Positions 1,408-58,573 of a DNA stretch of 64,000 bases are shown here, piece by piece. Origin of the DNA: an uncultured Acidobacteriota bacterium (GTDB lineage Bacteria; Acidobacteriota; Thermoanaerobaculia; Multivoradales; UBA5704); contig CAVYRF010000001.1 of the NCBI GenBank assembly GCA_963770895.1, positions 2,080,001-2,144,000 on the forward strand. Direction: 5' to 3'. Within the stretch, counting starts at the first letter, position 1. The number at the start of each line of letters is the position of its first letter. Position numbers and translations under genes: made by a program. A model generated the notes under the pieces. That model had not been told where the DNA came from. It did no database searches and saw nothing but the letters and a program-made list of their open reading frames with translations.

Positions 1408-2820
1408 CTACGGGAGGTCCCACTCCTCGTTGCTGTCGCCGATCGCGTGGCGCAGCCGCGAGAGGCCGGCGTCGGAGGCCGGGATGGTGTAGTCGTAGCG
1501 ATACCAGTGGTCGCCCTGGAGGCGCCCGTACATGTGGCCGAAGCTCCCCTGGCAGATGAGGCCGGTGTTGGTATAGCCGGGCTTGCACTCCTTGAGGCAG
1601 TGCTCCGAGGCCTGGTCGTCGCCGGCCAGGCACTCGGACTTGTAGCAGCCGTCGGGGTCCGGCTTGCCGATGGTGTAGGTCGGAGTGCCCTCGCAGGCAG
1701 CCATGTTGAGGGGAGGCGGGTTCTGGGTGGGATGCTGGCTGATGCCGTCGGGTCCCCAGTGCCAGGTGGCGAACTCGCCCTGCGGATATTGGAGGCTGGG
1801 CGAGCTGTGCTGCGACCAGTTGTCCTGGAGCATCCAGGGCTCTTCATAGCTGTCCAGGTCGGCCAGCCTGGCCGTCCAGGTGCGCAGGATGTCGGCATCC
1901 GACTTGGGGTTGCGGAAATCGGCCCAGTAGGCGCACCCACCGGCGCCGGCGGGGCCCGCCGAGTTGTCGTCGTGGAACGAGCCGTGCGAGAGCTTGCCCA
2001 CGTAGACCACGGGGTGCTCGCCGTCGCTGCGAAAGCCGGAGGAGCCGCCGCAGCGCCCGGTTCCGCCGGGGGTGCAGGGAGCGTCGTGAGACCCCGAGAT
2101 GCGCGTGTACCAGCCGCCGTGCTGGAAGTAGGTGACGGCCGCCACGGCGTTGCGGTCCTCCCGCAGGATGACGATCACGTTCTCCCAATCGCCGTTGTGC
2201 TTCCCCTCCTCCATGAAACAGGGGTGCTGGTAGCCGTAGAACCACCAGTACCGGATGCGCACCTGCTTGCCGACGGTCCGGATCTGGTAATAGGTCGGAA
2301 TGGATTTGTTTCCGAGCGTCGCCTGATTCGTGTTTTCGACCCCGACCGGCGTGTTGCCCGGCTGGTCGACCGGATTGCCGTCCTTGTCCTTGGGCAGCCT
2401 GTCGACGAACGGCTGCGGCGGCATCGGATACCCCTGCGCGGCACGGTCGAACTTCAGCTCCGGCGCGAAGCGGGCGTCGAGCGCCGGGGTGACCAGGTTG
2501 GGCGGCGACCCCTGAGCGCAGAAAACCTTGCCAAGCTTGTTCTGAGGCGGCCACTTCCTGTGGATGGCGCACTTGTACCCCGGCCCGCCCATGGCGCCGC
2601 CATCGGCGAGCCCATAGATCTCCCAGGGCTGCATAGAGTCGCAGATCTGCTGCCTGTGCTCGAAAGCCTCCTGCGTGGTGAGCACGTGCATGGCTCCGCA
2701 GTGCGCCGCGTCGTCCGCCGCGAACACCGGAAACTTCCCACCGCTCGTCTGGCCAACCGCCGGCAGGCCGCAGCAGATCAGCACCAGCCAACACGGACCG
2801 ACCCATAGAGATCTTTTCAT
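1408..2820 (-). CDS. Secreted Cys-rich protein: aerolysin APT-like N-terminal domain plus NPP1/Vps62-like domain
   Basis: ATG at 2820 with signal peptide MKRSLWVGPCWLVLICCGLPAVG. Segment 'EA...MQPWEIYGLADGGAMGGPGY' resembles the aerolysin small lobe. 'FAPELKFD...YWWFYG...HNGDWENV...HPVVYVGKLSHG' resembles NPP1/Vps62. Confidence 0.6.
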   Translation of the reverse strand: MKRSLWVGPCWLVLICCGLPAVGQTSGGKFPVFAADDAAHCGAMHVLTTQEAFEHRQQICDSMQPWEIYGLADGGAMGGPGYKCAIHRKWPPQNKLGKVFCAQGSPPNLVTPALDARFAPELKFDRAAQGYPMPPQPFVDRLPKDKDGNPVDQPGNTPVGVENTNQATLGNKSIPTYYQIRTVGKQVRIRYWWFYGYQHPCFMEEGKHNGDWENVIVILREDRNAVAAVTYFQHGGWYTRISGSHDAPCTPGGTGRCGGSSGFRSDGEHPVVYVGKLSHGSFHDDNSAGPAGAGGCAYWADFRNPKSDADILRTWTARLADLDSYEEPWMLQDNWSQHSSPSLQYPQGEFATWHWGPDGISQHPTQNPPPLNMAACEGTPTYTIGKPDPDGCYKSECLAGDDQASEHCLKECKPGYTNTGLICQGSFGHMYGRLQGDHWYRYDYTIPASDAGLSRLRHAIGDSNEEWDLP

Positions 2821-3200
2821 CTCCCGGTTCCTCCTCGTCTGAGAATGGGGTAGGGCTTTCCACCATTGTATCGGAACCGCGATCCGCGAAGTCCGCGCCG
2901 CCCGTGGCAAGGATGAACTTCGCCTTGGCCTTGGCTGCGCATTCCGCTGAAGGCGACCACCCGTTCCTGAAACCCAGGCTGTCCGCGGGCTTCTCCTCTC
3001 TTCGCGCGGTAAGGAAGTGTCGTCGGCAGCCCCGCGGGCAGGTATGATGCTCTCCAGGGCGAGGCGCACGGGTTCGGGCCGTTTCGGTCCGCCACGATCG
3101 CCGCTTCCGCTACCCCGCGGCATTTCTTTCGCGATCCGCTCTTGTACCGCCGGCCGCCGCGGGGATGTGCGAAGGCCTGTCTCGGAAGGGATGTTCCTGA

Positions 3201-5033
3201 TTGGACAGCGCGACCCACCCCTCGCCTCGTTGGCTCCGTGACCTGCGGCGCTTCCTACCCCTCAAGAGCCAGTTTGTCCTGAGCGGCAACGTCCGCGACC
3301 TCCAGATCTACGCGACTGGGGAAGCGGTCACCGCGGTGAGCCTGGAAACGGTGCTCGGTGCAACGCTCGCCCGAGCCGGCTTCGTCTCCGTGCTCGCCTA
3401 CGAGCCGGTCGCCGGCTTCCGCGTCCTCGACCGTCCCGACGGATCTCCATCCGACGCCCGGGCGGTGCTCGGCGGGCTCGGGCTCACGCCGTCGGCCAAC
3501 GGCGCCGCTCCGGCCGGCCCCGACCTGTTTGCGTCGGTGCTGCAGCGGCTCGTCCAGCGCGACGGAGCGCCGATCGCGCTGGTCGCCGACTTCGCGTCGC
3601 GTCTCCTGGTCCGCCACGACGCGCCGAGCGTCGCCGAGCACCAGCTGTTCACCACCGCGCTCGTGCTGAGCCAGAAGGCCGCAGCACGCCCTCTCGGGGT
3701 CGACCGCTCGCCGCTCTACAACGCGGTGATCTGGGTCGTCGACAAGGAGGGGGACCTGCCCGATTGGCTGACGATCGGCAACCCGCGCATTCGCCACATC
3801 CCGATTGCGAGCCCCGATCGCCAGGCGCGATGGGCCGTCGCCCCATCTCTCCTCCGCGGGCTCCCCGGCGCCCGCGAAGCGCCCCCCGAGGCGCTTCGGC
3901 GCGCCGAGGTCGAGCTGGTCGATGGCACCGAGGGGCTGCTCCTCATGGACCTGAGCTCGATCGCCCAGCTGGCGCGCTCCGAGGGCGTGGCGCTCGGCGA
4001 CATCGGCGACGCCGTCCGGCGCTACAAGGTGGGCGTCACCGAGGACGCCTGGCGGAAGATCGAGAAGGAGAGGATCCGAGGCGGCGTCGAGCAGGTGACC
4101 AAACGGGTGATCGGCCAGGACCACGCGGTCACCCACATGCTCGACATCGTCAAGCGGGCGGCAACCGGTCTCGGCACCGGCGGCACCGGCGGGCGCCCGC
4201 GCGGCATTGCGTTCCTCGCCGGCCCGACCGGCGTCGGCAAGACGGAGCTCGCGAAGAGCGTGACCGAGCTGCTGTTCGGCGACGAGAGTGCCTACATTCG
4301 CTTCGACATGTCGGAGTTCAGCGCTGAGCACGCCGACCAGCGGCTGATCGGCGCGCCGCCCGGCTACGTTGGCTACGACATGGGGGGCGAGCTGACCAAC
4401 GCGATCCGCGAGAAGCCGTTCGCGGTCGTCCTGTTCGACGAGATCGAGAAGGCGCACCCGCGCATCCTCGACAAGTTCCTGCAGGTGCTCGACGACGGGG
4501 TCCTAACCTCGGGGCGCGGCGACCGTGTCTACTTCTCGGAGGCGCTGATCGTGTTCACCTCCAACCTCGGCATCTACAGGCTCGACGCGAGCGGGGCGCG
4601 GATCCCGAACGTCGCTCCCGACCAACCGTTCGAGGAGGTGCGGGCGCGGGTGCGGGCCGAGATCGAGGCCCACTTCAAGCTCGTCCTCAACCGGCCCGAG
4701 ATCCTCAACCGCATCGGCGAGAACATCATCGTGTTCGATTTCATCCGGCGTGACGTGGCAGACCGGATCTTCGACGGCATGGTCGACGCGCTGCTGCGCG
4801 AGGCCGCGAAGTCGGGGCATCGGGTCGCGATCGCGCCCGAGGCGCGGGAGGCGCTGCGCGAGCTCTGCGTCGCCGACCTCTCGAACGGCGGCCGCGGCGT
4901 GCGCAACAAGCTCGAAGTCCATCTCACCAACCCGCTCGCCCGCGCGCTCTTCGACCGCGACGGGGAAGGGCCGGTGGTCGTCCGCCGCGTCGAGCCCGGC
5001 GCGATCACCCGTCTGCATCTCGAGAGCGAATGA
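3201..5033 (+). CDS. ClpB-like AAA+ ATPase (intact D2-type module, degenerate N-terminal module)
   Basis: Walker A GPTGVGKTELAK, FDMSEF, pore loop LIGAPPGYVGY, Walker B VVLFDEIEKAHP, sensor FTSN. No Clp N-domain and no first Walker A. Confidence 0.85.
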   Translation: MDSATHPSPRWLRDLRRFLPLKSQFVLSGNVRDLQIYATGEAVTAVSLETVLGATLARAGFVSVLAYEPVAGFRVLDRPDGSPSDARAVLGGLGLTPSANGAAPAGPDLFASVLQRLVQRDGAPIALVADFASRLLVRHDAPSVAEHQLFTTALVLSQKAAARPLGVDRSPLYNAVIWVVDKEGDLPDWLTIGNPRIRHIPIASPDRQARWAVAPSLLRGLPGAREAPPEALRRAEVELVDGTEGLLLMDLSSIAQLARSEGVALGDIGDAVRRYKVGVTEDAWRKIEKERIRGGVEQVTKRVIGQDHAVTHMLDIVKRAATGLGTGGTGGRPRGIAFLAGPTGVGKTELAKSVTELLFGDESAYIRFDMSEFSAEHADQRLIGAPPGYVGYDMGGELTNAIREKPFAVVLFDEIEKAHPRILDKFLQVLDDGVLTSGRGDRVYFSEALIVFTSNLGIYRLDASGARIPNVAPDQPFEEVRARVRAEIEAHFKLVLNRPEILNRIGENIIVFDFIRRDVADRIFDGMVDALLREAAKSGHRVAIAPEAREALRELCVADLSNGGRGVRNKLEVHLTNPLARALFDRDGEGPVVVRRVEPGAITRLHLESE

Positions 5034-5674
5034 CGCCCGCCGCGATCTCCCGCCTCCACTTCCCGGTCACCACGCTCGGCCCGGGGCGCCGCATCGGGGT
5101 CTGGTTCCAGGGGTGCTCGCTCCGCTGCCCCGGCTGCATCTCACCCGATACCTGGGAGCCCGGACGCGGGGAGACCACGGTCGAGGAGGTGCTCGCGGCG
5201 CTCGCCCCGTGGCGGGACGCGGCCGATGGGCTGACCGTCTCGGGCGGCGAGCCGTTCGAGCAGGGCAAGGCGCTCGCCGCGCTCTTGACCGGCTGGCGCG
5301 CCGGAGCGCCGAAGAGCTCGCTGGTCTTCACCGGCTTCGAGCGCGCCGCCGTCGAGCCCTGGCTTGCCGCCCACCCGGGGCTGATCGACGCGCTCGTCAC
5401 CGGTCCTTTCCGGCAGGAAGCGCCGCAGACCCTGGCGCTACGCGGCAGCGACAATCAGGAGCTGCACGTCCTGTCGCCGCTCGGCGTCGCGTTCCGAGCC
5501 CTCGACCGGCCGGCGACCGGCGACGACCGCCGCCTCGACGCCATGTTCGACGCCGACGGCACGGTCTGGTTCGCCGGCATCCCGGCGCGCGACGACTTCC
5601 GGCGCCTCCGCCGCGCCCTCGAAGCGGCGGGCCACGCCGTCACCCTCTCACCCAGGGCACGAGGAGCCGCATGA
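5030..5674 (+). CDS. Radical SAM 4Fe-4S protein, NrdG/GRE-activase-like
   Basis: GPGRRIGVWFQGCSLRCPGC (CxxxCxxC), SGGEPFEQ, LRGSDNQ. ATGA overlaps with both neighbours. Confidence 0.85.
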   Translation: MTPAAISRLHFPVTTLGPGRRIGVWFQGCSLRCPGCISPDTWEPGRGETTVEEVLAALAPWRDAADGLTVSGGEPFEQGKALAALLTGWRAGAPKSSLVFTGFERAAVEPWLAAHPGLIDALVTGPFRQEAPQTLALRGSDNQELHVLSPLGVAFRALDRPATGDDRRLDAMFDADGTVWFAGIPARDDFRRLRRALEAAGHAVTLSPRARGAA

Positions 5675-8600
5675 TCCGTTTCTGTCCGGCCTGCGCGACG
5701 GAGCGCAGCCCGTCCGAGGTGTTCTGCGAGGGGACCATCGACGGCCGGCCTTGCGATTGGAACCTGAGCGAGGTGCCGCTCCGGCCGGCCGGCTGGCGGC
5801 CGTCCCCGGAAGGGGAGCTCGAGCCCGTCCCGGCGCCGTCCGGCGTCTGCCCGAACGGCCACCCCCTCGAGCCGGGCGACCTCCTCTGCGGGCGGTGCGG
5901 GGCCGACCTGACGACCACCGAACCCTCCGCCTCCGGCACCGCGCTCCGGGAGGGGGAGCCCGCAGGCGGAGCGGCGACACCGTCGATCCCCGGCTGGAGG
6001 ATCGAGCACCGGATCGCCGCCGACAGTCAGGTCCAGGAGCGCTACGCCGCGGTGCGCGAGGCGGACGGCCACCGCGCCGTCCTCACCGTCTACAGCGAGG
6101 GGCACGAGCCGGATGCCGAGGTCTACGAGGTGCTGCGGACGCTCGATCGCGAGCACGTCCCCGACCTGCTCGAGACCGGGCGGTGGGACGGGCGCGCCTA
6201 CGAGCTGAGCGAGGACTTGCGCGGCGGCACCCTCGCCGAGGTCGGCCTCCTGCCCGATGATCTCGGCACTCTGTCGCGCATCGTCTCCGAGCTCGGCAGG
6301 GCCCTCCATGCGCTCTCCGAGCACGGGCTGCGCCACCGCGACCTGCGTCCGAGCGCGATCCTCGTCCGCACCCGCGAGCCGCTCGACCTCGTCCTCACCA
6401 GCTTCGGCTCGGCGCTCCTGTCGGACTACGACCTCGACACCGTCTCGCCGCTCGAGACGACGCGCTACACGGCGCCCGAGGCGGCCTTGGGCGCCGTCGC
6501 CGCGGCGAGCGACTGGTGGAGCTTGGGGATTCTCCTTCTGGAGCAGGTGACGCGCGGCGCCTGCTTCGCGGGGGTGAACGACCAGGCGTTCCTGATCCAC
6601 GTCCTGACCCACGGGGCGCCGATCCCGGAAGGGCTCGCTCCCGAGGTCGACCTCCTGCTGCGCGGGCTCCTGACGCGCGACCGGCGCGAGCGTTGGGGCT
6701 GGCCCGAGGCGCAGCGCTGGCTCGCCGGCGAGTCGCCTTCCGTCTCGGCCTCGGCGCGTCCCGCGGCGGAGACGCGAGGAACGCGAACCCTCCAGCTCGG
6801 TGGCACCGACTACGCCAGCCCGACCGCGTTCGCGTTCGCCGCCGCGGAGGCGGCGAACTGGGACGAGGCGCGCACGCTCCTCGCGCGCGGCGCCGTCGCG
6901 ACTTGGGCCGAGGAGGCGGGGTTCGACGGCCGGCTACAGGCGGATCTTCGGCACCTCGCCCACGTCGACGACCTGTCGGACGACCTGCGGCTGACCCTGG
7001 CCGTCAGGGCGTTGAATCCGGCGATGCCGCTCGTCTTGCGCGGTGAGATCGTGACACCGGGCTGGCTCCTCGACCACCCGGACGAGGGGTACGCGATGAT
7101 CGCCGGCTCTGCCCCCGACCGGCTCGCCCGCAACGACGCGGATGTCTGGCTGTCGCGCATGAAGGCCCGCGCCTTGCAGGTGCGCGAGCGGGCCGAGCAA
7201 CTCGGCATCGCCCTGGATGAGACGGAGCTGCGGCTCTACCTCCTCGCCACCTCGCGCAGCCGCCTCGCGGCGATCTGGCGGGAGCGCTGTCGCCTCCTTC
7301 CCGATACCGACCATCCGGGGCTCGTCGCGCTCATGGAGCGTCGGCAGACGACCGACGAGGACTACATCGTGCTGCTCGCCGCCGACGTCGGGCAGTTCCG
7401 CACCGCCGACGCGGTGGTCGTGGACGCCGCACGCGCCGCAGCAGACGTCGGGGTCGAGAGCTTCGATGCGGCAGCGGCCCGTGCCCGGCTCGAGAAGCCG
7501 CGGCGCGAGATCTACTCCGAGATCGAGCAGCGCCTCGCCGGCTTCTCGCGCTGCGATCGCGCGCGGATCGACGAGTGGGCCGACAGCTTTCGGATCGAGC
7601 GCCGCCTGCCGCTCCCGCGGGCGCTCGCCCTCCTCGCGGTGCCGGCCGATTCGTGGCGCGAGCCGCCGCGGCAAGCCTACGTGGCGACCCTGCTCGACTT
7701 CTTCGGCAAGCGAATCACCAACGCGCTGGTCCGCGGGCCGCTGACCCGCATGCTGGTCGGCAAGAACGCCGCGCGCCTCGATCTGACCGAGCTCGACGGC
7801 GAGCGCCGGTCGGCGGCCGCGCTGCTCGACCACCTGCTCCGGCGAGGGGCGCTGGCGATCGACCTCGACCCCGCCGTCTTCCGGGACGACCCGACGCTCG
7901 AGCGTCGGCTGCGCACGCTGCACTCTCACGCCATGCTCTACCGCCGCGACACCGGGATCGACGGCCTCTACCTCGGGTTCCCCTTCCTCCTCCTGCAGGA
8001 GAACCGGACGTCGGTCAAACCGCGGATCGCGCCGGTCCTCCTCTGGCCGGTGCGGCTCCGGCCGGAAACCGGCGCGCGGGCGCGGATCGACGTCGCCTTC
8101 GACGACGACCGCCAGGAGGTGCGGCTCAATCCCGCGTTCGCCCTCCTTCTGGGAGCCGATGCGGCCCGCCGCTGGGAGGAGGCCGCCCGCGACCTGCTCG
8201 GCCGTGCGAGCCTGACCGCCGGCGGGGTGCTCGACGCGTTTGCCGGCCTGGCCGCTGTCGAGGGGCGGAGCCTCGTCCCGCTCCCCGGCAAGGACGCGAA
8301 GGTCGAGCCAGGCGCCGATCGGCTGGTCTGCGCCGCGGTGCTGTTCAACCTCTCCTTCCTCGGCCAGGCGGTCTTGGAAGACCTGCGCCAGCTGAGGGCG
8401 ATCCCGCCCGCCGGCACCGGTCTCGAGAAGGCGTTCCGGGTCGGGGGCCGGGTGGAGCGGTCTTCCCTCGAGCCCGTGCGCGAGCGCGATCGGTACCTCA
8501 CCGCCGACAGCGATCCATCCCAGGAACGGGCGGTCCTGGAAGCGCGCACGGGCAGCGGGTTGGTGGTGGAAGGGCCGCCGGGCACCGGCAAGAGCCAGAC

Positions 8601-11600
8601 GATCGTCAACATGGTCGCCGACGCCATCGGCCGCCGCAGGAGCCTCCTCGTCGTCTGCCAGAAGCAGGCGGCGCTCGAGGTCGTGCACAAGCGGCTGGAA
8701 GCGGAGGGGCTGGGCGGGCGCGTCATGATGCTCAACGATGTGAACAAGGACCGCCTGCCGATCATCCGCGCGGTCCGCGAGCAGCTCGAGGCGCTCATGG
8801 CGCGCCTCGCGGGCGAGGCGGGCTGGCGGCAGCAGCGCCAGCAGCTGGCCGGCCGCATCGAGGTCCTGGAAGCCGACCTCGACCGCCATCACGAGGCGCT
8901 GCACGCGGCCGATCCCGCGACCGGCCTTAGTTATCGCCTCGTCCTCGGCGACCTGATCTCCGCCGAGACGGGAGAGCGGCCGCCGATCGACGTGCCGCGC
9001 CTGCGCCTTGTCCTGGGCTCCGTCGGCCCCTCCAACGTCGCCCATCTGCAGGAGACCTGTGGGCCGCTCGCCGGGCTTTGGCTCGCCGCGGAGTTCGAGG
9101 ACAGCCCGCTCGCCGGGCTCCGCCCTTTCGCTTCGGACGCCGGGACGGTCGCGGCCTTCGCCGACGACCTGGCGGCGTTCGCGAAACGCGATCGGGAGCG
9201 TTGCGATGTCCTCGCGCGCACCGCGGACGCGATCGAGGCCGACGATCCGGACGCCTGCCGGAGCTGGAAAGCCCTCCACGCCGAGACGTTCCGTTCTCTC
9301 GACGAGGCAGCCCGCGAGCGGCTCGCCCGCTGGCTCCCCCGGCTGACGCGAGAACGCGACGAGGAGTGGCGGCGGGAGACCGCCGAGCTTGAAGCGGTCG
9401 CGCAGGGGATCGCGGCCCTCACCGCCGGCCCCTCCGACGCGCCGTCGGCGCGGGTGGCGCGCGGCCTTTCGACGCCGGACCTCGGCACGATCGACGGGCT
9501 GACGGAGACGGCGCTCCCCGCCAGCTTCTTCGCCAGGTTTTCCCTGTCGCGCTTCCGCAAACGGCGGCAGCTCCTCACCTTTCTTCGTTCGGCCGGCCTC
9601 GCCGATCCGCTCGCGTTGCGGGCTGCCGTCCGCGACGAGATCGCCGTCCGCCCGTTCCGCGACCGGCTGGCCGCAACGCGCGCTCGCCTCGGCGAGCCGC
9701 CACTGCCGCTCGAAGAGCGACCTCCCGCGGTGCTCGCCGCGACCGCTCGCACCCTGGGCGCATGGTTGGCCGAGGCGGCGCAGCTGGCCGCTCGCCTCCT
9801 CGAGCATCCACGCCGTGCGGCGGCCTGGGCGATGGCGGGTGCCGCGGCCCGCGAGGCGTTCGACCGGTTCCTCGACCGCGTCGAGCAGGGCCTCGAGCGT
9901 CACCGGGCGCAGCAGGCGAGCCTCGCGGCGCTCGCATCGCTCGCGACCTGGTTCGAGGAGCCCTGGCTCGCCGACCGTCGCCGCGAGATCGGAAGCGGCA
10001 TGGAATGGCGCGACGGCACCACGGCGTTCATCCCGCAGCGGGTCGCCGCCTATCAGCGCTTCCGTTCGCGAGCCCGCGAGCTGTCGCCGCTCGCGCTCGA
10101 CGCGTTCCGTGCCCTCCGCACTGTCGCCCCGGCACTACGGCAGCTGCCCGACGGCGCGCTCGACGGCGAGGTACGGCGGATCTTCGCCCGTGAATCGCGC
10201 CTCGCCTGGAAGGCGCATCTCGAAGGCGAGCGGCCGGCCCTCCTGTTCGAGGCGGCGGAGCTCGAGGCCAAGCGCGAGGCGCTCGCCGCGGCGGATCGCG
10301 AGATGCGGACGCTCAACCGAAGGTGGGTGGCCGAGGGAATCGACATGGCGAAGGTGCGCCCGCTCCGCGAGTGGGAGGACATCACCCGCCTCTCCGGCCA
10401 GCGGACGCGGCGGCTGCGCGAGTTCCTCGACCGCGGAGTGGAGCTCGGCCTGATGGCCCTCCGCCCCGTCTGGCTGATGAACCCGGACGTCGCGAGCCGC
10501 GTCCTGCCGCTGCGCGGCGGACTGTTCGACGCCGTCATCTACGACGAGGCGTCGCAAATGCCGATCGAGTACGCCGTTCCGAGCCTGTATCGCAGTCGCG
10601 TCATGATCGTCAGCGGCGACGAGAAGCAGATGCCGCCGAGCGCCTTTTTCTCCAGCCGAGTGGCGAACGACGAGGGGGAGCCGTTCGCAGGGGACGGCGC
10701 GGAGGAGGGGGCGAGCGAGCAGGAGCGCGAGGAGCTTGCCGCGACCTGGGACCGGCGCGAGATCAAGGACTGCCCCGACCTGCTGCAGCTGGCGCGCTCG
10801 GTGCTTCCCATCACGACGCTGCAGATCCATTACCGCTCGGCCTACAGCGAGCTGATCCAGTTCTCGAACGCCTCGTTCTACGCGAACGGCCTGAGCGTCC
10901 CGGTGCGCCACCCCGAGGCCGAGGTGCGCCGCGTGCGGCCGATCGAGCTGCTCCAGGTCGACGGTGTCTACCAGGAGCAGACGAACCGGGCCGAGGCGGA
11001 GCGGGTCGTCGCGGTGGTGGCGGAGCAGTGGAAGGTTCCCGCCGCGGAGAGGAAGTCGATCGGCGTCGTGACGTTCAACCGCAAACAGGCCGACCTCATC
11101 GAGGAGAGGCTCGAGGCCCGCGCCCAGGAGGACCCGGCGTTCCGCGCCGCCCTCGCCGAGGAGCGCGACCGCGTCGAGAAAGGGGAGGACGTCGGCTTCT
11201 TCGTCAAGAACGTCGAGAATGTGCAAGGGGACGAGCGAGACGTCATCGTCTTCTCCTCGACGTTCGGGCGCAACGCGCAGGGCACCTTCCGCCGCTCCTT
11301 CGGCGTGCTCGGCCAGGTGGGCGGCGAGCGCCGCCTCAACGTCGCGGTGACCCGAGCGCGCGAAAAGGTGGTCCTCGTCACCTCCATGCCGATCCCGCTC
11401 ATCTCGGACTTTCTCGCGACGCTGCGCCAGGCCGAGTCGCCCCGCGACTACCTGCAGGCCTACTTCGAGTACGCCCGCGCGCTCTCGTCCGGGGAGCTCG
11501 AACGGGCGCGTTCGCTTCTCGGCCGCCTGGCGCCAGGGCGCGATGGACGCGGTCCGCGCACGCCGACCGCCGTCGATCTCGACGGCTTCCAGCAGGCGGT

Positions 11601-11907
11601 GGCGGAGGAGATCGAGCGGCTGGGCTTCCGCCCCCTGTCCGTCCAGGAGGCGGGGGTCTTTGGCTTCGACTTCGCCATCGAGGACCCGCGGACCGGCCTC
11701 TTCGGCATCGCGATCGAGTGCGACGCGCCGCGCCATCCACTGCTCGACCGGGCGCGCCCGCGCGAGGTCTGGCGGCCCGGCGTGCTGCGGCGCTCGATCC
11801 CCGCCGTCCACCGCGTCTCGTCGCGCGGCTGGTGCCAGGCGCCGGCCGAGGAGAAGGCGCGGCTGCGCGCGGCGATCGAAGCAGCCCTCTGCGGGGAGGC
11901 GGCATGA
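5671..11907 (+). CDS. Zn-ribbon + degenerate Ser/Thr kinase-like + DUF4011 + SF1 (UPF1-like) helicase + Vsr-like nuclease fusion
   Basis: ATG 5671 after GAGGAG. Zn ribbons CPAC and CPNGH..CGRC. Kinase motifs HRDLRP, APE, SDWWSLG. DUF4011-like LYLGFPFL..APVLLWPV. Helicase GPPGTGKSQT, DEASQ, GDEKQMPP, HYRS, QGDERD, RRLNVAVTRA. C-terminal DFAI..IAIECD. Confidence 0.85.
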   Translation: MIRFCPACATERSPSEVFCEGTIDGRPCDWNLSEVPLRPAGWRPSPEGELEPVPAPSGVCPNGHPLEPGDLLCGRCGADLTTTEPSASGTALREGEPAGGAATPSIPGWRIEHRIAADSQVQERYAAVREADGHRAVLTVYSEGHEPDAEVYEVLRTLDREHVPDLLETGRWDGRAYELSEDLRGGTLAEVGLLPDDLGTLSRIVSELGRALHALSEHGLRHRDLRPSAILVRTREPLDLVLTSFGSALLSDYDLDTVSPLETTRYTAPEAALGAVAAASDWWSLGILLLEQVTRGACFAGVNDQAFLIHVLTHGAPIPEGLAPEVDLLLRGLLTRDRRERWGWPEAQRWLAGESPSVSASARPAAETRGTRTLQLGGTDYASPTAFAFAAAEAANWDEARTLLARGAVATWAEEAGFDGRLQADLRHLAHVDDLSDDLRLTLAVRALNPAMPLVLRGEIVTPGWLLDHPDEGYAMIAGSAPDRLARNDADVWLSRMKARALQVRERAEQLGIALDETELRLYLLATSRSRLAAIWRERCRLLPDTDHPGLVALMERRQTTDEDYIVLLAADVGQFRTADAVVVDAARAAADVGVESFDAAAARARLEKPRREIYSEIEQRLAGFSRCDRARIDEWADSFRIERRLPLPRALALLAVPADSWREPPRQAYVATLLDFFGKRITNALVRGPLTRMLVGKNAARLDLTELDGERRSAAALLDHLLRRGALAIDLDPAVFRDDPTLERRLRTLHSHAMLYRRDTGIDGLYLGFPFLLLQENRTSVKPRIAPVLLWPVRLRPETGARARIDVAFDDDRQEVRLNPAFALLLGADAARRWEEAARDLLGRASLTAGGVLDAFAGLAAVEGRSLVPLPGKDAKVEPGADRLVCAAVLFNLSFLGQAVLEDLRQLRAIPPAGTGLEKAFRVGGRVERSSLEPVRERDRYLTADSDPSQERAVLEARTGSGLVVEGPPGTGKSQTIVNMVADAIGRRRSLLVVCQKQAALEVVHKRLEAEGLGGRVMMLNDVNKDRLPIIRAVREQLEALMARLAGEAGWRQQRQQLAGRIEVLEADLDRHHEALHAADPATGLSYRLVLGDLISAETGERPPIDVPRLRLVLGSVGPSNVAHLQETCGPLAGLWLAAEFEDSPLAGLRPFASDAGTVAAFADDLAAFAKRDRERCDVLARTADAIEADDPDACRSWKALHAETFRSLDEAARERLARWLPRLTRERDEEWRRETAELEAVAQGIAALTAGPSDAPSARVARGLSTPDLGTIDGLTETALPASFFARFSLSRFRKRRQLLTFLRSAGLADPLALRAAVRDEIAVRPFRDRLAATRARLGEPPLPLEERPPAVLAATARTLGAWLAEAAQLAARLLEHPRRAAAWAMAGAAAREAFDRFLDRVEQGLERHRAQQASLAALASLATWFEEPWLADRRREIGSGMEWRDGTTAFIPQRVAAYQRFRSRARELSPLALDAFRALRTVAPALRQLPDGALDGEVRRIFARESRLAWKAHLEGERPALLFEAAELEAKREALAAADREMRTLNRRWVAEGIDMAKVRPLREWEDITRLSGQRTRRLREFLDRGVELGLMALRPVWLMNPDVASRVLPLRGGLFDAVIYDEASQMPIEYAVPSLYRSRVMIVSGDEKQMPPSAFFSSRVANDEGEPFAGDGAEEGASEQEREELAATWDRREIKDCPDLLQLARSVLPITTLQIHYRSAYSELIQFSNASFYANGLSVPVRHPEAEVRRVRPIELLQVDGVYQEQTNRAEAERVVAVVAEQWKVPAAERKSIGVVTFNRKQADLIEERLEARAQEDPAFRAALAEERDRVEKGEDVGFFVKNVENVQGDERDVIVFSSTFGRNAQGTFRRSFGVLGQVGGERRLNVAVTRAREKVVLVTSMPIPLISDFLATLRQAESPRDYLQAYFEYARALSSGELERARSLLGRLAPGRDGRGPRTPTAVDLDGFQQAVAEEIERLGFRPLSVQEAGVFGFDFAIEDPRTGLFGIAIECDAPRHPLLDRARPREVWRPGVLRRSIPAVHRVSSRGWCQAPAEEKARLRAAIEAALCGEAA

Positions 11908-13241
11908 GCGGTCCCAAGGTCGTCCGTATCGTGAGCCGGGAGGAGATCCTCGCCTTGTGCCGCGGGTTGCTGGCGCGGGTCGACGCGGCGCTCGCGGAAT
12001 GGGCCGGCGCCGACGGGGTGGGCGAGGCCGACCTCGCGGTGGCGCGGAGGCGGCGGGAGGATCTGGGTCGCCTGCTCGACGCCGGCAGTTTCCTCGACCT
12101 CCAGAAGCAGGCGCCCCGCGAAGAGGCGTTCCTGCGCTCCGACCGCACGGCGAGGGCTGCTCGGGCCGCCGCCGCAGCCGCGCAGGAGCGGGCGGTGGAA
12201 CGGCGCCGCAGCGAGGCCGGCCGTGCGCTGCTCGCGGCGCTCCATCGCCAGGGAGCCGCGCTCGACCCGCAACTCGAACGGGCATTGGACGCGGTGGCAG
12301 GTGGTGCACTCGATCCCGTCGCGATGCGCCGCGGCTTCGCCCTTTTGACCGCCGGGAGCGGGGCGGAGGTTGGCCTGGACCGCGAGCGGGCGCGGAGCCT
12401 GAAGGAGGGAGACGATCGAGCGAGCTTCTCCGACTGGCTCGCCCGGCAGCCGAAACCGCCGTCCGACCCGGCTGTCGAGCGCCTCGAAGCGCGCCTGGCC
12501 GAGTTGGCCGGGGTCGCGGGGCGGGAAGCGGCCGCACTGCTGACGGCGCGCCTGCAACGGGCGCTGGAGGAGGTACCGCCGCGGCGAGGATTGCTGCTCG
12601 ACAGCCTGGAAATGGACCTCGGACCGGCGCTCGCCGAGGCGAGGCGGCGGGCCGACCTCGACCAGGAGATCCGCCTGGTCTTCGCGGAGCTGTCGGAGGC
12701 GGGTTCGCCGGCGCTCGTCACGCTCGCAGAGCGGCGCCGCGCGAGCGACACACCGGAAGCGCTCGACTCTCTCCTCTCCCAGGCCCGCGAGACGCTCACG
12801 CGGGAACGCGAAGCCCGAGGCGCCGCGGCGCGAAGATTGGCCGTCCTCGAAGCTCTCTCCGGTCTCGGCTACGAGGTCAGGGAGGGACTCGCGACCGCCT
12901 GGGTCGAGGAGGGGAGAGTCGTGCTTCGCAAGCCGGCGCAGCCCGGTTACGGCGTCGAGATCTCGGGCGACCCCGCCGCGGCACGTCTGCAGATGCGCGC
13001 CGTCGCGTTGACAGGCGGCACCGCCGGCCCCGATCCGGCCCGCGACCGCGACGCCGAGACCCTCTGGTGCGGCGACGTCGCGGCGCTCCAGACCCGCCTT
13101 GCGGCCGAAGGCGGCGGCCTCACGATCGAGAAGGCGCTGCCGATCGGCGCAACGCCCCTCAAACGCGTCGTCGAGCCGACCGCGTCCCGCACGGAAGCCC
13201 GGGAAGGTCCGGGCCAGCACACGTTCCCGCTGCGGCGCTGA
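11904..13241 (+). CDS. Hypothetical coiled-coil protein, last gene of the AAA/radical SAM/helicase operon
   Basis: ATG 11904 overlaps the helicase stop (ATGA); MSGPKVVRIVSREEIL. Long helical Ala/Arg/Glu-rich body and a globular C-terminus (LGYEV...YGVEI...DAETLWC). Confidence 0.75.
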   Translation: MSGPKVVRIVSREEILALCRGLLARVDAALAEWAGADGVGEADLAVARRRREDLGRLLDAGSFLDLQKQAPREEAFLRSDRTARAARAAAAAAQERAVERRRSEAGRALLAALHRQGAALDPQLERALDAVAGGALDPVAMRRGFALLTAGSGAEVGLDRERARSLKEGDDRASFSDWLARQPKPPSDPAVERLEARLAELAGVAGREAAALLTARLQRALEEVPPRRGLLLDSLEMDLGPALAEARRRADLDQEIRLVFAELSEAGSPALVTLAERRRASDTPEALDSLLSQARETLTREREARGAAARRLAVLEALSGLGYEVREGLATAWVEEGRVVLRKPAQPGYGVEISGDPAAARLQMRAVALTGGTAGPDPARDRDAETLWCGDVAALQTRLAAEGGGLTIEKALPIGATPLKRVVEPTASRTEAREGPGQHTFPLRR

Positions 13242-13326
13242 CGGTCGCGATGAACTATTTGCGGGCAAGCGGGTACAGACTTGCCAAACGGCTCCCTTCG
13301 CTCGGTCGAGCCCCGTGAGGTGGCGT

Positions 13327-15069
13327 ATGTGTGGCAGCAACTTTCTTCGCTGTGCCAAGGCTATCGTCCTCAACGTGCTGTTCGGTCTGGGCGCGGCGTC
13401 GGCGGCATCCGCCGCCAACGTGACGATCCTGGCCGTAGGTGACGGCTACTACTCCCCCGCGGCCTTCTCGCCCAGGAACGTCACCATCCATGTCGGCGAC
13501 ACGATTACCTTCACCAATGCCAGCGCCAACACCGCCTATCCGGGACCGCACAACGTGCACGCCGACGACGAATCCTTCCTCTGCTCGGATAGTTGCACGT
13601 CGCCGCACAATATGCCGAGCACTGACGCCTGGAGCTTCAGCATCACTTTCAGCTCGCCGAAGACCTTCAACTATCACTGCGACCATCACGGCAACTACAA
13701 CCTGGTGGGCATGAGCGGCACCATCACCGTGCTGGGGAACGGCGCGCCGGGGAATCTGGGCTTCAGTTCCGCCACGTACAGCTCCCTGGACAGCGCCGCC
13801 AACGCCTCGATCGCCGTCGCGCGCACCGGCGGCAGCAGCGGCGCCGTGTCTGTCCTCTATGCGACCAGCGACGGCACCGCCCACGCCGGCAGGGACTACA
13901 CCTCGGCCAGCGGCACGCTCAGCTGGGCCGACGGCGACGCGAGCGCCAAGAGCTTCGCCGTGCCGCTCCTGGCAAACGGCAGCGGCACTGTGAACCTCGC
14001 CTTGAGCGCGCCCAGCGGCGGTGCCGCCCTCGCCTCGCCGAGTACCGCCACGCTGACGATCCAGCCGGCGCAGAACGCCGGCACGATCGGCTTCGCCCAG
14101 GCGAGCCAGAGCGTGAGCGAGAGTGCCGGCACCGTGTCCGTCGTGGTCAACCGGAGCGGCGGCAGCGGCGGCGCGACGGTCCACTACGCGACGGGCGGTG
14201 GTACCGCCGTGGCCGGCACCAATTACACCAGCACCGCGGGGACGCTCAGCTGGGCCAGCGGCGACGATGCGTCGAAGAGCTTCACCGTCCAGGTCCTCGA
14301 CGACCACATCGCGGACGGGACCCACACCGTCAATCTCACGCTCAGCGATGCGACCGGCGGCGCCAAGATCAATCCCACTACCGACACCCTGTCGATCACC
14401 GACGCCGACGGCTCGGGCGCCGCTCCCAAGGTCCCCAGCAACCTGGTCGCCACAACGCTCGACACCAGCGACATCAAGCTCGCCTGGACGCTCAACTCCA
14501 CCGACCAGACCGGCCTGGTGATCCAGAGCCGCCGGCTCGACGGCACCTACGCCACGCTCGCCGGCGGTCCGCCGGCCAGCGCCACCAGCTTCACCGTCTC
14601 CGGGCTCACCGCGGCCACCGGTTACGCCTTCCACATCGCGGCGAGCAATGCCTCGGGGGTTTCTGCCTACAGCAACGAGGCCATCGCCTCGACCGATGCC
14701 ACGCCGGCCGCCTGCGTCGCCAACGCCCAGACCCTGTGCCTGGGCGCCTCCGGCCGCTTCCAGGTCCAGGTCGCCTACGTCTCTGCCACGCAGAGCGGCG
14801 AGGCCACCTCTCTGGCCCTGCCGAGCAACCCCGACTCGGGCCTCTTCTACTTCTTCGACTCCGGCAACATCGAAATGCTCATCAAGGTGCTCAACGCCTG
14901 CGCGGCCCCCTTCGATCACTACTGGGTCTTCTTCGCCGCCACCACCAACGTGCAATTCACCGTCACCGTGATCGACACCCAGACCGGAGCCGTGCAGACC
15001 TATTTCAACCCTCTCAACCAGGCGGCGCTCGCCGTCCAGGACACCGCCGCCTTCGCCACCTGCCCCTAG
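13327..15069 (+). CDS. Secreted cupredoxin + 2x Calx-beta + FN3 + conserved C-terminal domain protein
   Basis: Signal peptide. Type-1 Cu-like ligands HNVH...YHCDHHG...MSGTITV. Calx-beta repeats (V.Y.T.DGTA.AG.DY....GTLSW). FN3 ending YSNEA. C-terminus FFDSGNIEMLIKVLNAC...TAAFATCP. Confidence 0.8.
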   Translation: MCGSNFLRCAKAIVLNVLFGLGAASAASAANVTILAVGDGYYSPAAFSPRNVTIHVGDTITFTNASANTAYPGPHNVHADDESFLCSDSCTSPHNMPSTDAWSFSITFSSPKTFNYHCDHHGNYNLVGMSGTITVLGNGAPGNLGFSSATYSSLDSAANASIAVARTGGSSGAVSVLYATSDGTAHAGRDYTSASGTLSWADGDASAKSFAVPLLANGSGTVNLALSAPSGGAALASPSTATLTIQPAQNAGTIGFAQASQSVSESAGTVSVVVNRSGGSGGATVHYATGGGTAVAGTNYTSTAGTLSWASGDDASKSFTVQVLDDHIADGTHTVNLTLSDATGGAKINPTTDTLSITDADGSGAAPKVPSNLVATTLDTSDIKLAWTLNSTDQTGLVIQSRRLDGTYATLAGGPPASATSFTVSGLTAATGYAFHIAASNASGVSAYSNEAIASTDATPAACVANAQTLCLGASGRFQVQVAYVSATQSGEATSLALPSNPDSGLFYFFDSGNIEMLIKVLNACAAPFDHYWVFFAATTNVQFTVTVIDTQTGAVQTYFNPLNQAALAVQDTAAFATCP

Positions 15070-15323: not shown

Positions 15324-17657
15324 GTGCATACTTGCAAAAGCGATCCAGCGAGAGGTTTTGGCCACGTGCTGACTGAAGACACCGCGAGCGGAGTTCCGGC
15401 CGATGTCGACCTCGACCTGGAGCAGAGGATCCTCGACACCCGACGATTGCTCGTCGTCGGACCCGCCGGATCTGGAAAATCCTTTCGCCTGCGTTCTGCC
15501 AAGGCGCTGCTCGAGCGCCAGGGGCATCTGGCCGTCCTGATCTACCTGCGCGACATCGGCAGGCCGGAGGAGATTGCCGGCCAGGTGGTGCAGAGCTGCC
15601 TGCGCGAGGTCGCGGCCCGCCGGATCAGCCCGCCGCCGGCTCTCGCCCGCTTCACCCAGCCAGCCGCGGCCCAGGGTGTGCCGACGGTGAGCGGCGAGGT
15701 ATTCCGCTCGTTCATCGATGCGCTGCTGCCGCTCCTCAGCCGCGACCGCAGGTTGATCCTGCTGTTTGACGGCATCGACGAAGCGCGCTTTCCACCGCGC
15801 TTTGCGACCTTTCTCGAAACCGTGACGAGCGACCTGCCGCCGCTCATCCACAGCGTGGTCACGGCGCGCTCGACTTTTTTAGCCGAGCGCTTCGCGGCCT
15901 GGGACTCGCTCGCGCTAGGGCCTGCGGCAGCCTGGGCCTGGCGCGAGGCCGCGGAGCTCGATCCCGCCGCGGCAGCGGGGCCGGCATCCGCGCAGCGGCT
16001 GGTCAAGGCACTGGCGCTGTTATCTCCCTCTTCGCTCGCCCTGCTTGTCGCGGCGTCCCGGCTGCAGGAGGAGGATGTCAGGCGGCAGCTGGCCATGGCC
16101 GAAAGCATCGGGCAGGTAACCCTGTACGGCGAGCAGGCCCGCTTTGCGCGGGAGGCGGACCGAGAGCGGGTGGTGCGGGCCCTGCTGATTCCTGCACTGC
16201 GGCTTGAAAACCTGCAGTTTGGAGCGGAGGCGGCGGAGATCGACCGGCTCTTGCAGAGCTGCTTCCAGAATCGCTCCGACCTGGAACTGATCCTCGACGG
16301 CAGAAAGACCGTCATCCTTGGCGACCGCGGAGCCGGCAAGAGCGCGCTGTTCGGGCGCCTCGAGGATAGCGTCGGCGGCGGCGAGACCGGGCGGGGCCTG
16401 GTGGTGGCCAAGGCGCAGGATCCGGCGAACGTATTGCGGACGATGACCGTGGGTGCCGCAGCGGTCGCCTCGCCAGAGGAGTTCAAGGCGATGTGGCTGT
16501 TGTACCTGGCGGCGCTGGCGGCCCGGCAGCTGCAGAGCAAGGGCAGGCCAAGGGATCCGTTGGAAAAACGTCATGCCCGCGCCGCGCGTACGATCCTGCG
16601 CAGTTTTGGCTGGTCGTCCAAGATCCAATCCGAAGGTTGGCTGTCGCGCGCCTGGCACGCCGTCGCCGGAGCAACGACGGCCAAGGTCAAGATCTCGGTG
16701 GGGCCGATCGCCATCGAGCCGACCGGCGCCTTGAACGGCGCCGGCGCCGGGCGCACGCCGCGCCGGCGCTTCGAGGTGTATGACTTTCTGGAGCTCACCG
16801 ACCGGCTGTTGGTGCGGCAGGAGCGGCAGCTTCTGGTTGCCATCGATCAGGTCGATGAGGCGCACAAGTACGAGCGTCCCATCCAGGAGGCGATGATCCA
16901 GGGTCTGATGCTGGCTGAATCCTACATCGCCCAAAGGCAAGCGATGCGCCTCGCGGTCTTTCTGCGCTGCGATCTCTGGGAGACCTACGACATCCAGGAG
17001 AAGAACAAGTTCGTGCTGCGCACCATCTGGCTCAGCTGGGCCGCCCACGAGCTCGAGTCGCTGCTGCTCGACCGGCTCTGCTCGAACCCGTGCTTTGGCG
17101 AGATCGCCGCGATGGTGCGGAACTGTTCGCCGCATCGCGCCGAAGTCACCGTCCGCGCCCTGCGTTGTTTCTTCCCCCCCGAGATCGAACGCACCGCCTT
17201 CCCGGAATGGCTGTTCGCAGGCTTGCGGAACGCACGCGACCGCGTCTCGCCGCGCCAGGTGATCCTGTTTCTCAATCTCTGTCGTGACAGTGCGCTGCGC
17301 GAGGCCCAGAGCGGCAGCGGTCCACGGCAGGATGGTCCCGTCTTCGGTGACCTGCACGTGCGCGAAGCAATGACGCAGCTTTCCGAGCTCAGCTACAACG
17401 AGGTGATCAGCGACTTCCGCGTGGCGAAAGGCTTCGTCAAGAACCTGCGCGCCGCCAACCGGATGGAGTTCGACCTGCAGGAGGTCAATGAGCTGTTCGA
17501 TCCCGTCGACGGGAGCATCGCCGATCAGGTCACCATCCTGGAACGGTTGGGTTTCCTCGGCCGCAAGGTGGACGACGCAGGGGGGCTGCGCTTGCGCTTC
17601 ACCGTCCCGCCTCTCTACACCCGCTGCTGGGAACAGATGGTGGCGGCAACCGGATAG
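15324..17657 (+). CDS. Tandem P-loop NTPase (C-terminal Sll1717-like ATPase)
   Basis: Two Walker A/B pairs: GPAGSGKS...LLFDGIDE and GDRGAGKSALF...AIDQVDE. FGAEAAE motif precedes the second. Start may be GTG 15366. Confidence 0.7.
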   Translation: MHTCKSDPARGFGHVLTEDTASGVPADVDLDLEQRILDTRRLLVVGPAGSGKSFRLRSAKALLERQGHLAVLIYLRDIGRPEEIAGQVVQSCLREVAARRISPPPALARFTQPAAAQGVPTVSGEVFRSFIDALLPLLSRDRRLILLFDGIDEARFPPRFATFLETVTSDLPPLIHSVVTARSTFLAERFAAWDSLALGPAAAWAWREAAELDPAAAAGPASAQRLVKALALLSPSSLALLVAASRLQEEDVRRQLAMAESIGQVTLYGEQARFAREADRERVVRALLIPALRLENLQFGAEAAEIDRLLQSCFQNRSDLELILDGRKTVILGDRGAGKSALFGRLEDSVGGGETGRGLVVAKAQDPANVLRTMTVGAAAVASPEEFKAMWLLYLAALAARQLQSKGRPRDPLEKRHARAARTILRSFGWSSKIQSEGWLSRAWHAVAGATTAKVKISVGPIAIEPTGALNGAGAGRTPRRRFEVYDFLELTDRLLVRQERQLLVAIDQVDEAHKYERPIQEAMIQGLMLAESYIAQRQAMRLAVFLRCDLWETYDIQEKNKFVLRTIWLSWAAHELESLLLDRLCSNPCFGEIAAMVRNCSPHRAEVTVRALRCFFPPEIERTAFPEWLFAGLRNARDRVSPRQVILFLNLCRDSALREAQSGSGPRQDGPVFGDLHVREAMTQLSELSYNEVISDFRVAKGFVKNLRAANRMEFDLQEVNELFDPVDGSIADQVTILERLGFLGRKVDDAGGLRLRFTVPPLYTRCWEQMVAATG

Positions 17658-19145: not shown

Positions 19146-19229
19146 GATCATTCTCCTTTCCCATTGCCGCATCGCTGCATCGAAACTGTGCTTGCACGAG
19201 ACTTCACAATTGCAGCTCACAATTGCTCT

Positions 19230-21164: not shown

Positions 21165-21170
21165 GACGCA

Positions 21171-25166: not shown

Positions 25167-25193
25167 GGTGCTCTCCTTGCGAAAATATGGGCG

Positions 25194-25532: not shown

Positions 25533-25600
25533 GGGAACCTCCCTTTCTTTCCGTTCACTCGCTTCGTTGACCGTGCCAATCCGCGGCCCGGTGAGCGCTG

Positions 25601-33223: not shown

Positions 33224-33233
33224 GGCAGGCGTC

Positions 33234-39895: not shown

Positions 39896-40101
39896 CGACG
39901 GCGTTCACGGCTGAGGTGATGCAACTGGTCACCTTTGTGCTAGGCTTCCCGGCGTCGCCTGCAATTTAGAGATTTTGACCCGCCGGCAGCGGCGGGCCTT
40001 GGGTTCGCAAGCCTGTGGCTGCGCCGAGGGCGTTGTCGCGCTTCCTGGCCGCCGGGGGCTTTCGTGCGCGAGCTTCACCACTTGAGGGAAAGCTGAACCC
40101 T

Positions 40102-58570: not shown

Positions 58571-58573
58571 TTC

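Follow-up and report, generated by a model that had tools for sequence, protein, structure and literature searches.

A strict, horizontally mobile four-gene cassette with an Hsp100-like protein, an orphan activase-like radical SAM enzyme and a giant helicase-nuclease: a candidate nucleic-acid conflict system

The window analyzed here is a whole 64-kb stretch of DNA from an uncultured Acidobacteriota bacterium (contig CAVYRF010000001.1, positions 2,080,001 to 2,144,000); coordinates are window positions unless a locus identifier (L0xx) is given. Positions 3201 to 13241 (∼10 kb) were found to be filled by four intact genes on the plus strand. They encode a short Hsp100/ClpB-like AAA+ protein (gene 1), a radical S-adenosylmethionine (SAM) enzyme resembling the activases of glycyl radical enzymes (gene 2), a giant helicase-nuclease with a kinase-like domain (gene 3), and a protein of no known family (gene 4). 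The catalytic motifs of the second AAA+ tier (D2), the radical SAM enzyme, the helicase and the nuclease are intact, and the four genes recur together, in the same order, across bacterial phyla. The genes and their features are as follows.

3201 to 5033, plus strand: gene 1, predicted Hsp100/ClpB-like AAA+ unfoldase, 610 aa, TTG start (Pfam, NCBIfam, AlphaFold model)
3216 to 3980, plus strand: gene 1 residues 6-260, degenerate D1-like first AAA+ tier (structural match to nucleotide-binding domain 1 [NBD1] of ClpB/ClpC)
4203 to 4961, plus strand: gene 1 residues 335-587, D2 ATPase and D2-small, active-looking (invariant motifs)
5030 to 5674, plus strand: gene 2, orphan NrdG/PFL-activase-like radical SAM enzyme, 214 aa (Pfam, NCBIfam, structure search)
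5114 to 5137, plus strand: codons for the CxxxCxxC [4Fe-4S] motif of gene 2, C29, C33 and C36 (invariant in 18/18 members)
5671 to 11907, plus strand: gene 3, giant protein of 2078 aa with zinc ribbons, pseudokinase, DUF4011, superfamily 1 (SF1) helicase and nuclease (Pfam, NCBIfam, PADLOC, alignment); the ATG at 5671 was taken within a longer reading frame, 4750 to 11907
5671 to 5910, plus strand: gene 3 residues 1-80, two zinc-ribbon-like motifs (invariant Cys/His)
5983 to 6720, plus strand: gene 3 residues ∼105-350, predicted pseudokinase (PF00069; lost catalytic residues)
7888 to 8139, plus strand: gene 3 residues 740-823, DUF4011 (PF13195, E 7.4e-11)
8512 to 11385, plus strand: gene 3 residues 948-1905, Upf1-like SF1 helicase core (AAA_11, AAA_12)
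11587 to 11877, plus strand: gene 3 residues 1973-2069, MTES_1575 (Vsr/DUF559-like) endonuclease domain (PF18741)
11904 to 13241, plus strand: gene 4, 445 aa, no known family (predicted model, alignment)

An ATGA start/stop overlap was present at every gene junction (5030, 5671, and 11904). The original prediction, made from the letters of the window, had given these overlaps and the gene coordinates, and both were borne out by the sequence and its open reading frames (ORFs); its domain calls for the cassette genes also held (AAA_2; Fer4_12; Pkinase, DUF4011, AAA_11, AAA_12, and MTES_1575). The window is ∼70% G+C and the genome 72%. A promoter and terminator scan over positions 2600 to 13800 returned none of either, which is uninformative because of the G+C content of the genome, and an Rfam search of the window gave no matches.

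The distribution of the cassette was examined in a one-genome-per-species data set of ∼185,600 genomes. At least 519 encode a gene 2 relative and are counted as carriers of the cassette, and the best 80 loci were kept. When these were searched by tblastn with the window proteins, the four genes were found in the same order in 70 of the 71 loci with room for all of them, and on the same strand in essentially all. The sole exception, L053 (10587-13473), lacks gene 1 upstream, and its genes 2 and 3 are parted by an IS66-family transposase gene; nearby genes encode a UvrD-ankyrin and a PAS protein. With start codons chosen by script, 4-bp overlaps were kept at 46/73, 28/65, and 49/62 of the three successive junctions, and in nearly all loci the junctions overlap or stay within 30 bases. 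No fifth conserved gene was found beside the cassette, the largest flank family covering 9 loci. The original prediction was to be given up if the genes did not occur together elsewhere; decisively the opposite was found. Two readings were rejected at this point: chance adjacency, by the common order in 70/71 loci, and a pathway for ribosomally synthesized peptides or other natural products, by the lack of a conserved precursor-peptide-like small ORF and of a fifth gene.

Carriers include Alpha-, Beta-, and Gammaproteobacteria, Acidobacteriota and Chlamydiota, as well as one bin assigned to the Melainabacteria and a few to the actinobacteria. Within the window's own lineage the genes are rare: a full-length gene 2 ortholog was found in 1 of 61 relatives, and gene 4 in 1 of 401 genomes of the phylum. 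In a FastTree phylogeny of the AAA+ protein (74 rows), a sphingomonad clade was the sister group of the window (support 99), Legionella fell within a Chlamydiota clade, and two Acidobacteriota stood beside gammaproteobacterial bins; the gene tree is incongruent with taxonomy. A homologue of gene 2 (54-59% identity) was also found on eight Rhizobium or Caballeronia megaplasmid records, the one opened (L086) holding the full cassette, and integrase, transposase or resolvase genes lay in the flanks of 6 of 20 loci in a Pfam survey of 130 flanking ORFs. The cassette is horizontally mobile and has moved between many bacterial phyla. In a search for phage-borne copies, no phage record was found to hold the cassette; 1737 records matched, none covering 80% of the query and all at <60% identity; the 15 matches listed were 29-36% identical, and the annotated ones were nrdG genes.

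Two details of the distribution were recorded separately. The cassette of Legionella quateirensis (L078) nests among those of the Chlamydiota L037, L040, L057, L065, and L070, which is consistent with transfer among amoeba-associated bacteria; its giant gene encodes 2347 aa, ∼260 aa longer than others. An Iamiaceae (Actinomycetota) contig matches an uncultured Bradyrhizobium bin in tblastn coordinates and identities for genes 2 to 4 (L029/L030), a likeness that probably reflects faulty binning and not a transfer.

The giant protein of gene 3 was examined in an alignment of 24 family members. At its N terminus, C5, C8, C19, and C28 and C60, H64, C73, and C76 are invariant (24/24), and their spacing suggests zinc ribbons. 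The kinase domain that follows (PF00069 at 199-347, 59 bits against a cut-off of 31.7) has lost the β3 Lys (0/24) and the DFG Asp (0/24), with the HRD Asp retained in 20/24 and replaced by Asn in 4/24, and its C-lobe scaffold motifs APE and DWWSLG are invariant. The nearest solved kinases were RSK, ULK1, MELK, and BRSK2. Judged from these residues, the domain is a pseudokinase, as had been foreseen, closest to CAMK/AGC kinases. In DUF4011, T761, G762, Y767, G769, P771, W792, and P793 are invariant. The helicase consists of AAA_11 (PF13086) at 948-1046 and AAA_12 (PF13087) at 1713-1905, an insertion of ∼570 residues splitting motifs Ia and II, and its motifs GPPGTGKSQT, DEASQ, SGDxKQxPP, HYRS, QGDERD, and GGERRLNVAxTRA were invariant in 24/24; the nearest solved helicase was IGHMBP2. 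The nuclease domain (PF18741) scored 52.9 bits against a cut-off of 38.2, with D2000, C2017, and H2022 invariant and E2016 and D2018 kept in at least 90%, and the protein ends at residue 2078, 9 residues beyond it. PF13195, PF13086, PF13087, and PF18741 were all over their Pfam cut-offs. Residues 100-740 match 702 proteins at E <= 1e-10. Among the 120 gene 3 matches listed, most are ∼2030-2130 aa with the same Pfam set and a few are shorter, without the C-terminal domains; the source names of relatives are mostly generic (“AAA domain-containing protein” and “DUF4011 domain-containing protein”).

Among known systems, the order of domains in gene 3 is that of Hhe (NF042953), with DUF4011 followed by an SF1 helicase (AAA_11/AAA_12) and, at the C terminus, a Vsr/MTES_1575-type nuclease. 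Gene 3 scored only 316.3 bits against a cut-off of 2000, over residues 1528-2061, and carries ∼740 extra N-terminal residues comprising the zinc ribbons, the pseudokinase and a conserved middle region. Hhe is reportedly a single-gene system; it stands alone, whereas gene 3 is accompanied by three partner genes (70/71 testable loci). The best NCBIfam match of gene 3 was Prometheus ProA (NF058533), at 507.7 bits over residues 935-2073, under the cut-off of 1500. ProA likewise has a DUF4011, a helicase and a DNA2/MTES-type nuclease. Prometheus is described as a defense system of a single four-domain protein validated in Pseudomonas aeruginosa (PMC13700489). As described there, ProA has a C-terminal DUF3320 and works alone, whereas gene 3 has no DUF3320 match at E <= 0.01 and belongs to a four-gene cassette. 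The strongest PADLOC match was the candidate PDC-S37, which has no curated cut-off (E 5.9e-144; residues 939-2072, profile positions 286-1341 of 1550); the profile was left unmatched over its first 285 and last ∼200 positions, and gene 3 over its first 938 residues. A literature search found no paper on PDC-S37. Hhe, MkoA, mad6, and PD-T4-6 followed, the kinase-like part giving the matches to mad6 and PD-T4-6. Judged by these scores, gene 3 is related to the named families Hhe and ProA but does not belong to them. The link to anti-phage DUF4011 helicase-nucleases drawn in the original prediction thus stood as real kinship, but only in part, at 507.7/1500 for ProA and 316.3/2000 for Hhe and with PDC-S37 matched over the C-terminal half of gene 3 alone.

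Gene 1 matched AAA_2 (E 3.4e-44) and ClpB_D2-small in Pfam, and scored 249.5 bits against TIGR03346 ClpB, under the cut-off of 1232.1. In its AlphaFold model (mean predicted local distance difference test [pLDDT] score, 79), residues 6-610 align with NBD1 and NBD2 of ClpB, ClpC, and Hsp104 (Z ∼20, ∼490 aligned residues, ClpB positions 181-858). D2 alone aligned with NBD2 of Thermus thermophilus ClpB at Z 19.4 (root mean square deviation 3.8, 285 aligned residues). When 27 family members from many phyla were aligned, the first 260 residues were seen to lack the Walker A Lys in 27/27 sequences, LSGNVRD occupying the P-loop position and VDFAS the Walker B position; G72-F73 is conserved where a pore loop would be, and would be the pore loop of D1. 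In D2, GPTGVGKTE (Walker A), FDEIEKAH (Walker B), APPGYVGY (pore loop), TSNLG, and GGRG-R are kept in 27/27, so that D2 retains the Walker motifs, the pore-loop Tyr and the sensor motifs; the motifs are named as is usual for Hsp100 proteins. Neither an N-domain nor a middle domain was detected, and the length of the protein also suggests that a middle domain is absent. Gene 1 is therefore predicted, from alignment and model, to be a short protein of the Hsp100 type in which the first tier is dead and the second works, with its substrate-threading pore loop kept. It shares the two-tier fold of ClpB, ClpC, and Hsp104 but differs in its catalytically dead D1. The D2-type AAA_2 with its pore loop is shared with PDC-M37B (E 1.1e-27) and Dodola DolB (E 3.4e-16), which cover only residues 338-456 and 279-456, respectively. 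Identity of the gene 1 protein across phyla is 57-73%.

Gene 2 matched Fer4_12 (E 8.6e-23), and C29-x3-C33-x2-C36 and GGE (G72-G73-E74) were invariant in 18/18 aligned family members. All 18 NCBIfam matches were under their curated cut-offs. The highest were NrdG (TIGR02491; 71.3 bits, cut-off 126.1) and PFLA (TIGR02493; 54.2 bits, cut-off 231.75), families that target protein glycines and not small molecules; QueE reached only 19.9 bits (TIGR04349, E 4.8e-4; 5tgs, E 0.0038). The closest solved structure was PFL-AE 3c8f (E 1.8e-11, residues 14-92 only). With the NrdG/PflA activases, its closest families by score, gene 2 shares the N-terminal GPGxR...GCxxxCxxC...DTW region and the GGE motif. 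It differs in being under every cut-off, in a C-terminal 65 residues with invariant motifs of their own (DRR-D, FD, and GIP), and in having no glycyl radical enzyme in 6/6 carriers. In the alignment with 3c8f, the Asp of the PFL-AE substrate-contact motif DGxGxR is Leu in gene 2.

The absence of a partner had been claimed for the window and was found to extend to the genome: PF13597 (NRDD) and PF01228 (Gly_radical) gave no matches in the whole genome of the window (8.16 Mb, 95% complete), nor in the five other carrier genomes searched, and positive-control genomes gave matches. Because no NRDD or Gly_radical domain occurs in any of these six carrier genomes, gene 2 is an activase-like radical SAM enzyme that is truly orphan, its usual substrate being absent. 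The family has >2500 members, the 120 best listed being 59-79% identical to the window protein. Fusions to other domains were considered; only four longer proteins were found, two with AAA_2, singletons that may be gene-calling or frameshift artifacts, and they were not used as evidence. A gene 2 relative of 35% identity also stands in a different cluster, on plasmid pPPM1a of Paenibacillus polymyxa M1 (L085, 9676-12543), in the order AAA ATPase (PF00004), DUF1257, DUF2997, and Fer4_12 radical SAM. Here an NrdG-like enzyme is paired with an AAA ATPase a second time and in an unrelated setting, a hint that such pairs form a recurring module.

Gene 4 gave no match in Pfam, NCBIfam or PADLOC. In its predicted model (pLDDT 85), the chain begins with a tail and a strand, followed by a long helical bundle and, at the C terminus, by a small α/β domain that takes up the N-terminal strand. 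Foldseek searches of the PDB and of the viral BFVD models returned nothing at E <= 1e-3, a sequence-profile search of the PDB returned nothing below E 0.1, and a protein atlas search returned “hypothetical” clusters only. Weak KA1-like structural matches were seen at Z 7.3-8.0 (Chk1 KA1 5wi2, Z 8.0, 89 aligned residues; AMPK regulatory fragment 3t4n, Z 7.7); beside the predicted CAMK-like pseudokinase of gene 3 the likeness is a mere lead, in a Z range where chance arrangements are common. The family comprises 1096 representative clusters at E <= 1e-10. In 149 representatives, MSGPK was conserved in 95-99%, G322-Y323 and G415 in 100%, and G350 and C389 in 99%. A predicted complex of the radical SAM enzyme with the gene 4 protein, including 4Fe-4S and SAM, scored 0.24 and 0.22 against a mark of 0.32 and counts neither way.

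The surroundings of the cassette were examined for defense genes. Domains of defense type in the flanks included Schlafen/AlbA_2, SIR2, Cas4-like, RloB, HNH, PIN, WYL, and MkoA-like helicases. For PADLOC (E <= 1e-10), 95 of the 130 flanking ORFs of the first 20 loci were scanned, the 35 with clear housekeeping Pfam matches being left out. At least one flank match was found in 11/20 of these loci and in 5/10 further ones, 16/30 altogether, compared with 4 of 18 arbitrary 10-kb regions from four carrier genomes (odds ratio 4.0, Fisher two-sided p = 0.04); counted by ORF, the figures were 20/197 versus 5/120 (p = 0.08). A place in defense islands, which had been put forward as a check on the defense idea, was thus found as an enrichment by locus, but a small one that, given the kinship of the loci and the limited control set, is only suggestive. 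Separate MkoA-like (AAA_11/AAA_12) helicase genes adjoin the cassette in four loci (L015 2905-3630, L045, L047 18437-19999, and L048 4401-7808), one of them fused to RNase_H_2. A staphylococcal-nuclease-like (thermonuclease) gene adjoins it in nine loci, mostly of sphingomonads (for example, L005 18221-18835), and another lies near the Rhizobium plasmid cassette (L086 6803-7648).

Genes of the cassette type appear in Johnson et al. 2023 as the conserved right flank of the P. aeruginosa core defense hotspot cDHS1, where they serve as markers only, and a radical SAM node is tied to many immune systems in the network of that study (PMC10250203). The full cassette was found in P. paraeruginosa (L082), the sister species of P. 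aeruginosa. The right-flank genes of cDHS1 are very probably the same cassette, the comparison resting on the sister species. As described there, they are core genes in P. aeruginosa, whereas in the lineage of the window the cassette is a rare acquisition (1/61 and 1/401). In PAO1 the cassette probably bears the tags PA2725 to PA2728; the papers found label PA2727 as “similar DNA helicase” or as “histidine kinase,” with “PA2727 + PA2728” as the entry in a single table, and did not confirm the tags of the other genes.

We read the four proteins as a nucleic-acid conflict system that spreads horizontally and is most likely directed against phages or plasmids, with a new control module of unfoldase and radical SAM enzyme, a reading in which our confidence and our doubt are about equal. 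In its favor count the conservation and mobility of the cassette, the kinship of genes 1 and 3 with defense proteins, the intact catalytic motifs, the orphan state of gene 2, the flank enrichment, the radical SAM node in the published network, and a NACHT STAND NTPase and a type I restriction-modification system in the same window. The four proteins would form one machine, because they are strictly linked and their active sites are intact except for the dead kinase and D1. In its motifs, the effector half is clearly of the Hhe/Prometheus kind. Gene 3 probably unwinds and cuts DNA, because the helicase and nuclease motifs are kept and it is kin to Hhe, ProA, and PDC-S37; by analogy, it is probably the effector, acting on invading DNA or, once triggered, on any DNA. 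Its zinc ribbons and dead kinase may be a sensor or regulatory module. We infer the defense role, and with it who would act on whom and in what order. The gene 1 protein, a presumed hexameric unfoldase with a dead D1 and an intact D2 and pore loop, would thread or open a partner protein. Gene 2 would modify a protein of the cassette itself by radical chemistry, because there is no glycyl radical enzyme for it to act on. Gene 4 may be a regulatory subunit, and is the best candidate substrate because its SGPK tail and G322-Y323 loop are invariant. In the most economical model, gene 2 would act on a cassette protein opened or extracted by gene 1, and the helicase-nuclease would be switched as a result. 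The control half (unfoldase, orphan activase-like radical SAM enzyme and gene 4) is new for this class, no described counterpart having been found.

A bolder form of the conflict-system reading, to which we give the chances of a long shot, is a radical-triggered immune switch, in which gene 2 would place a glycyl-type radical or another modification on the G322-Y323 loop or SGPK tail of gene 4, exposed by the unfoldase. In aerobic hosts the radical could cut or irreversibly alter gene 4, a one-shot fuse that would free the helicase-nuclease. If true, no earlier immune system would be known to be under the control of a protein radical, and glycyl-radical-activase chemistry would have its first use beyond anaerobic metabolism.

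Several observations weigh against a conflict system. Gene 3 is under the curated cut-offs of both named families, and neither gene 2 nor gene 4 gave a PADLOC match. Roughly half of the loci lie amid ordinary metabolic genes (for example, L058, L063, and L067, the last adjoining mutS), and the nine large non-cassette ORFs scanned in the window gave no PADLOC match at E <= 1e-10. The flank enrichment is small and comes from interrelated loci, with controls from four genomes only and, for the first 20 loci, a scan of 95/130 ORFs. The proteins are conserved like housekeeping ones (57-73% identity across phyla for the AAA+ protein). In P. aeruginosa the flanking genes are reported to be present in every isolate and to be core, not variable cargo (PMC10250203), a status that is unusual for a defense system. 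The literature search found no study or phage-protection test of the cassette.

Some of these points bear on the main rival, genome maintenance and not immunity, which we hold unlikely. The helicase-nuclease would resolve R-loops, stalled forks or damaged DNA, the unfoldase would strip blocked protein-DNA complexes, and the radical SAM enzyme with its [4Fe-4S] cluster would be a repair enzyme or a redox or SAM sensor. Radical SAM enzymes that act on DNA exist, such as spore photoproduct lyase. The reported core status in every P. aeruginosa isolate (PMC10250203) would suit such a role, as would the very high conservation across phyla, the many loci among housekeeping genes (for example, L067 by mutS), and the kinship of Prometheus relatives to eukaryotic R-loop-acting enzymes described in the literature (PMC13700489). 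A general repair system would, however, be expected to be vertically inherited and more widespread. The cassette is extremely patchy (1/401 genomes of the window's phylum, 1/61 relatives), its gene tree conflicts with taxonomy, and it is associated with mobile DNA, through the gene 2 homologue on megaplasmids (with the full cassette in L086) and integrases and transposases beside the cassette.

Two further alternatives keep the mobility of the cassette or its defense role and change what its parts do. Gene 2 might serve defense by making a small molecule, a modified nucleotide or signal as with viperins or QueE, the AAA+ protein and gene 4 being otherwise employed; this we consider decidedly improbable. 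Radical SAM chemistry on nucleotides can be antiviral, as prokaryotic viperins show, and the weak QueE matches (TIGR04349 and 5tgs) and the Leu in place of the DGxGxR Asp of PFL-AE fit such a product. Against it, the protein-glycine activases score best (71.3 and 54.2 bits, compared with 19.9 for QueE), the cassette has no QueC/QueD/FolE-like gene and no fifth conserved gene, and gene 2 is strictly linked to an unfoldase, a protein handler. The cassette could otherwise be an addiction or stabilization module of mobile elements, with a helicase-nuclease toxin restrained by gene 4 and an unfoldase that turns the antidote over, an explanation we rate as very improbable. It would account for the gene 2 homologue on eight megaplasmid records (full cassette in L086, the one opened), the insertion sequence or integrase genes beside the cassette in 6/20 loci, and the gene 3/gene 4 overlap kept in 49/62 loci. 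Yet known toxin-antitoxin modules come nowhere near 10 kb and four components, many loci lack a mobile-element gene within 8 kb, and the radical SAM enzyme would be left without a role.

The cassette is common, ∼10 kb long and strongly conserved, and its function is of a predicted kind only. It joins three things that are not known to cooperate, namely, an Hsp100 unfoldase, an orphan activase-type radical SAM enzyme in aerobes, and a helicase-nuclease of the Hhe/Prometheus type that carries a dead kinase. Should the cassette be a defense system, protein radical chemistry and ATP-driven unfolding would be added to the known controls of an immune nuclease; if not, a widespread and hitherto undescribed DNA-maintenance machine would be at hand. 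In either case, the orphan NrdG-like radical SAM family (>2500 members) gains defined candidate substrates.

The rest of the window holds other genes of note. A 777-aa NACHT/AAA_16 STAND NTPase is encoded 2 kb downstream of the cassette (15324-17657) and gave no PADLOC match at E <= 1e-10. It is followed on the minus strand by a run of large ORFs (17727-34787), several of them of 500-680 aa without a Pfam family, that includes a 1331-aa Tubulin_2 and GYF_2 protein (21171-25166) and a 1026-aa Hsp70-like protein (30182-33262); this run may make up a further conflict system of several genes. A type I restriction-modification system lies ∼40 kb from the cassette at 53477-62122 (53477-55633 and 58574-62122). 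Its HsdR-like protein, of 1182 aa, carries a C-terminal Peptidase_S24 (LexA-like) domain, an unusual fusion. Between these, a probable secreted protease of 2072 aa is encoded at 40015-46233, with five Big_3_5 repeats and a pro-kumamolisin activation domain; its gene has the highest G+C content at third codon positions in the window (0.93).

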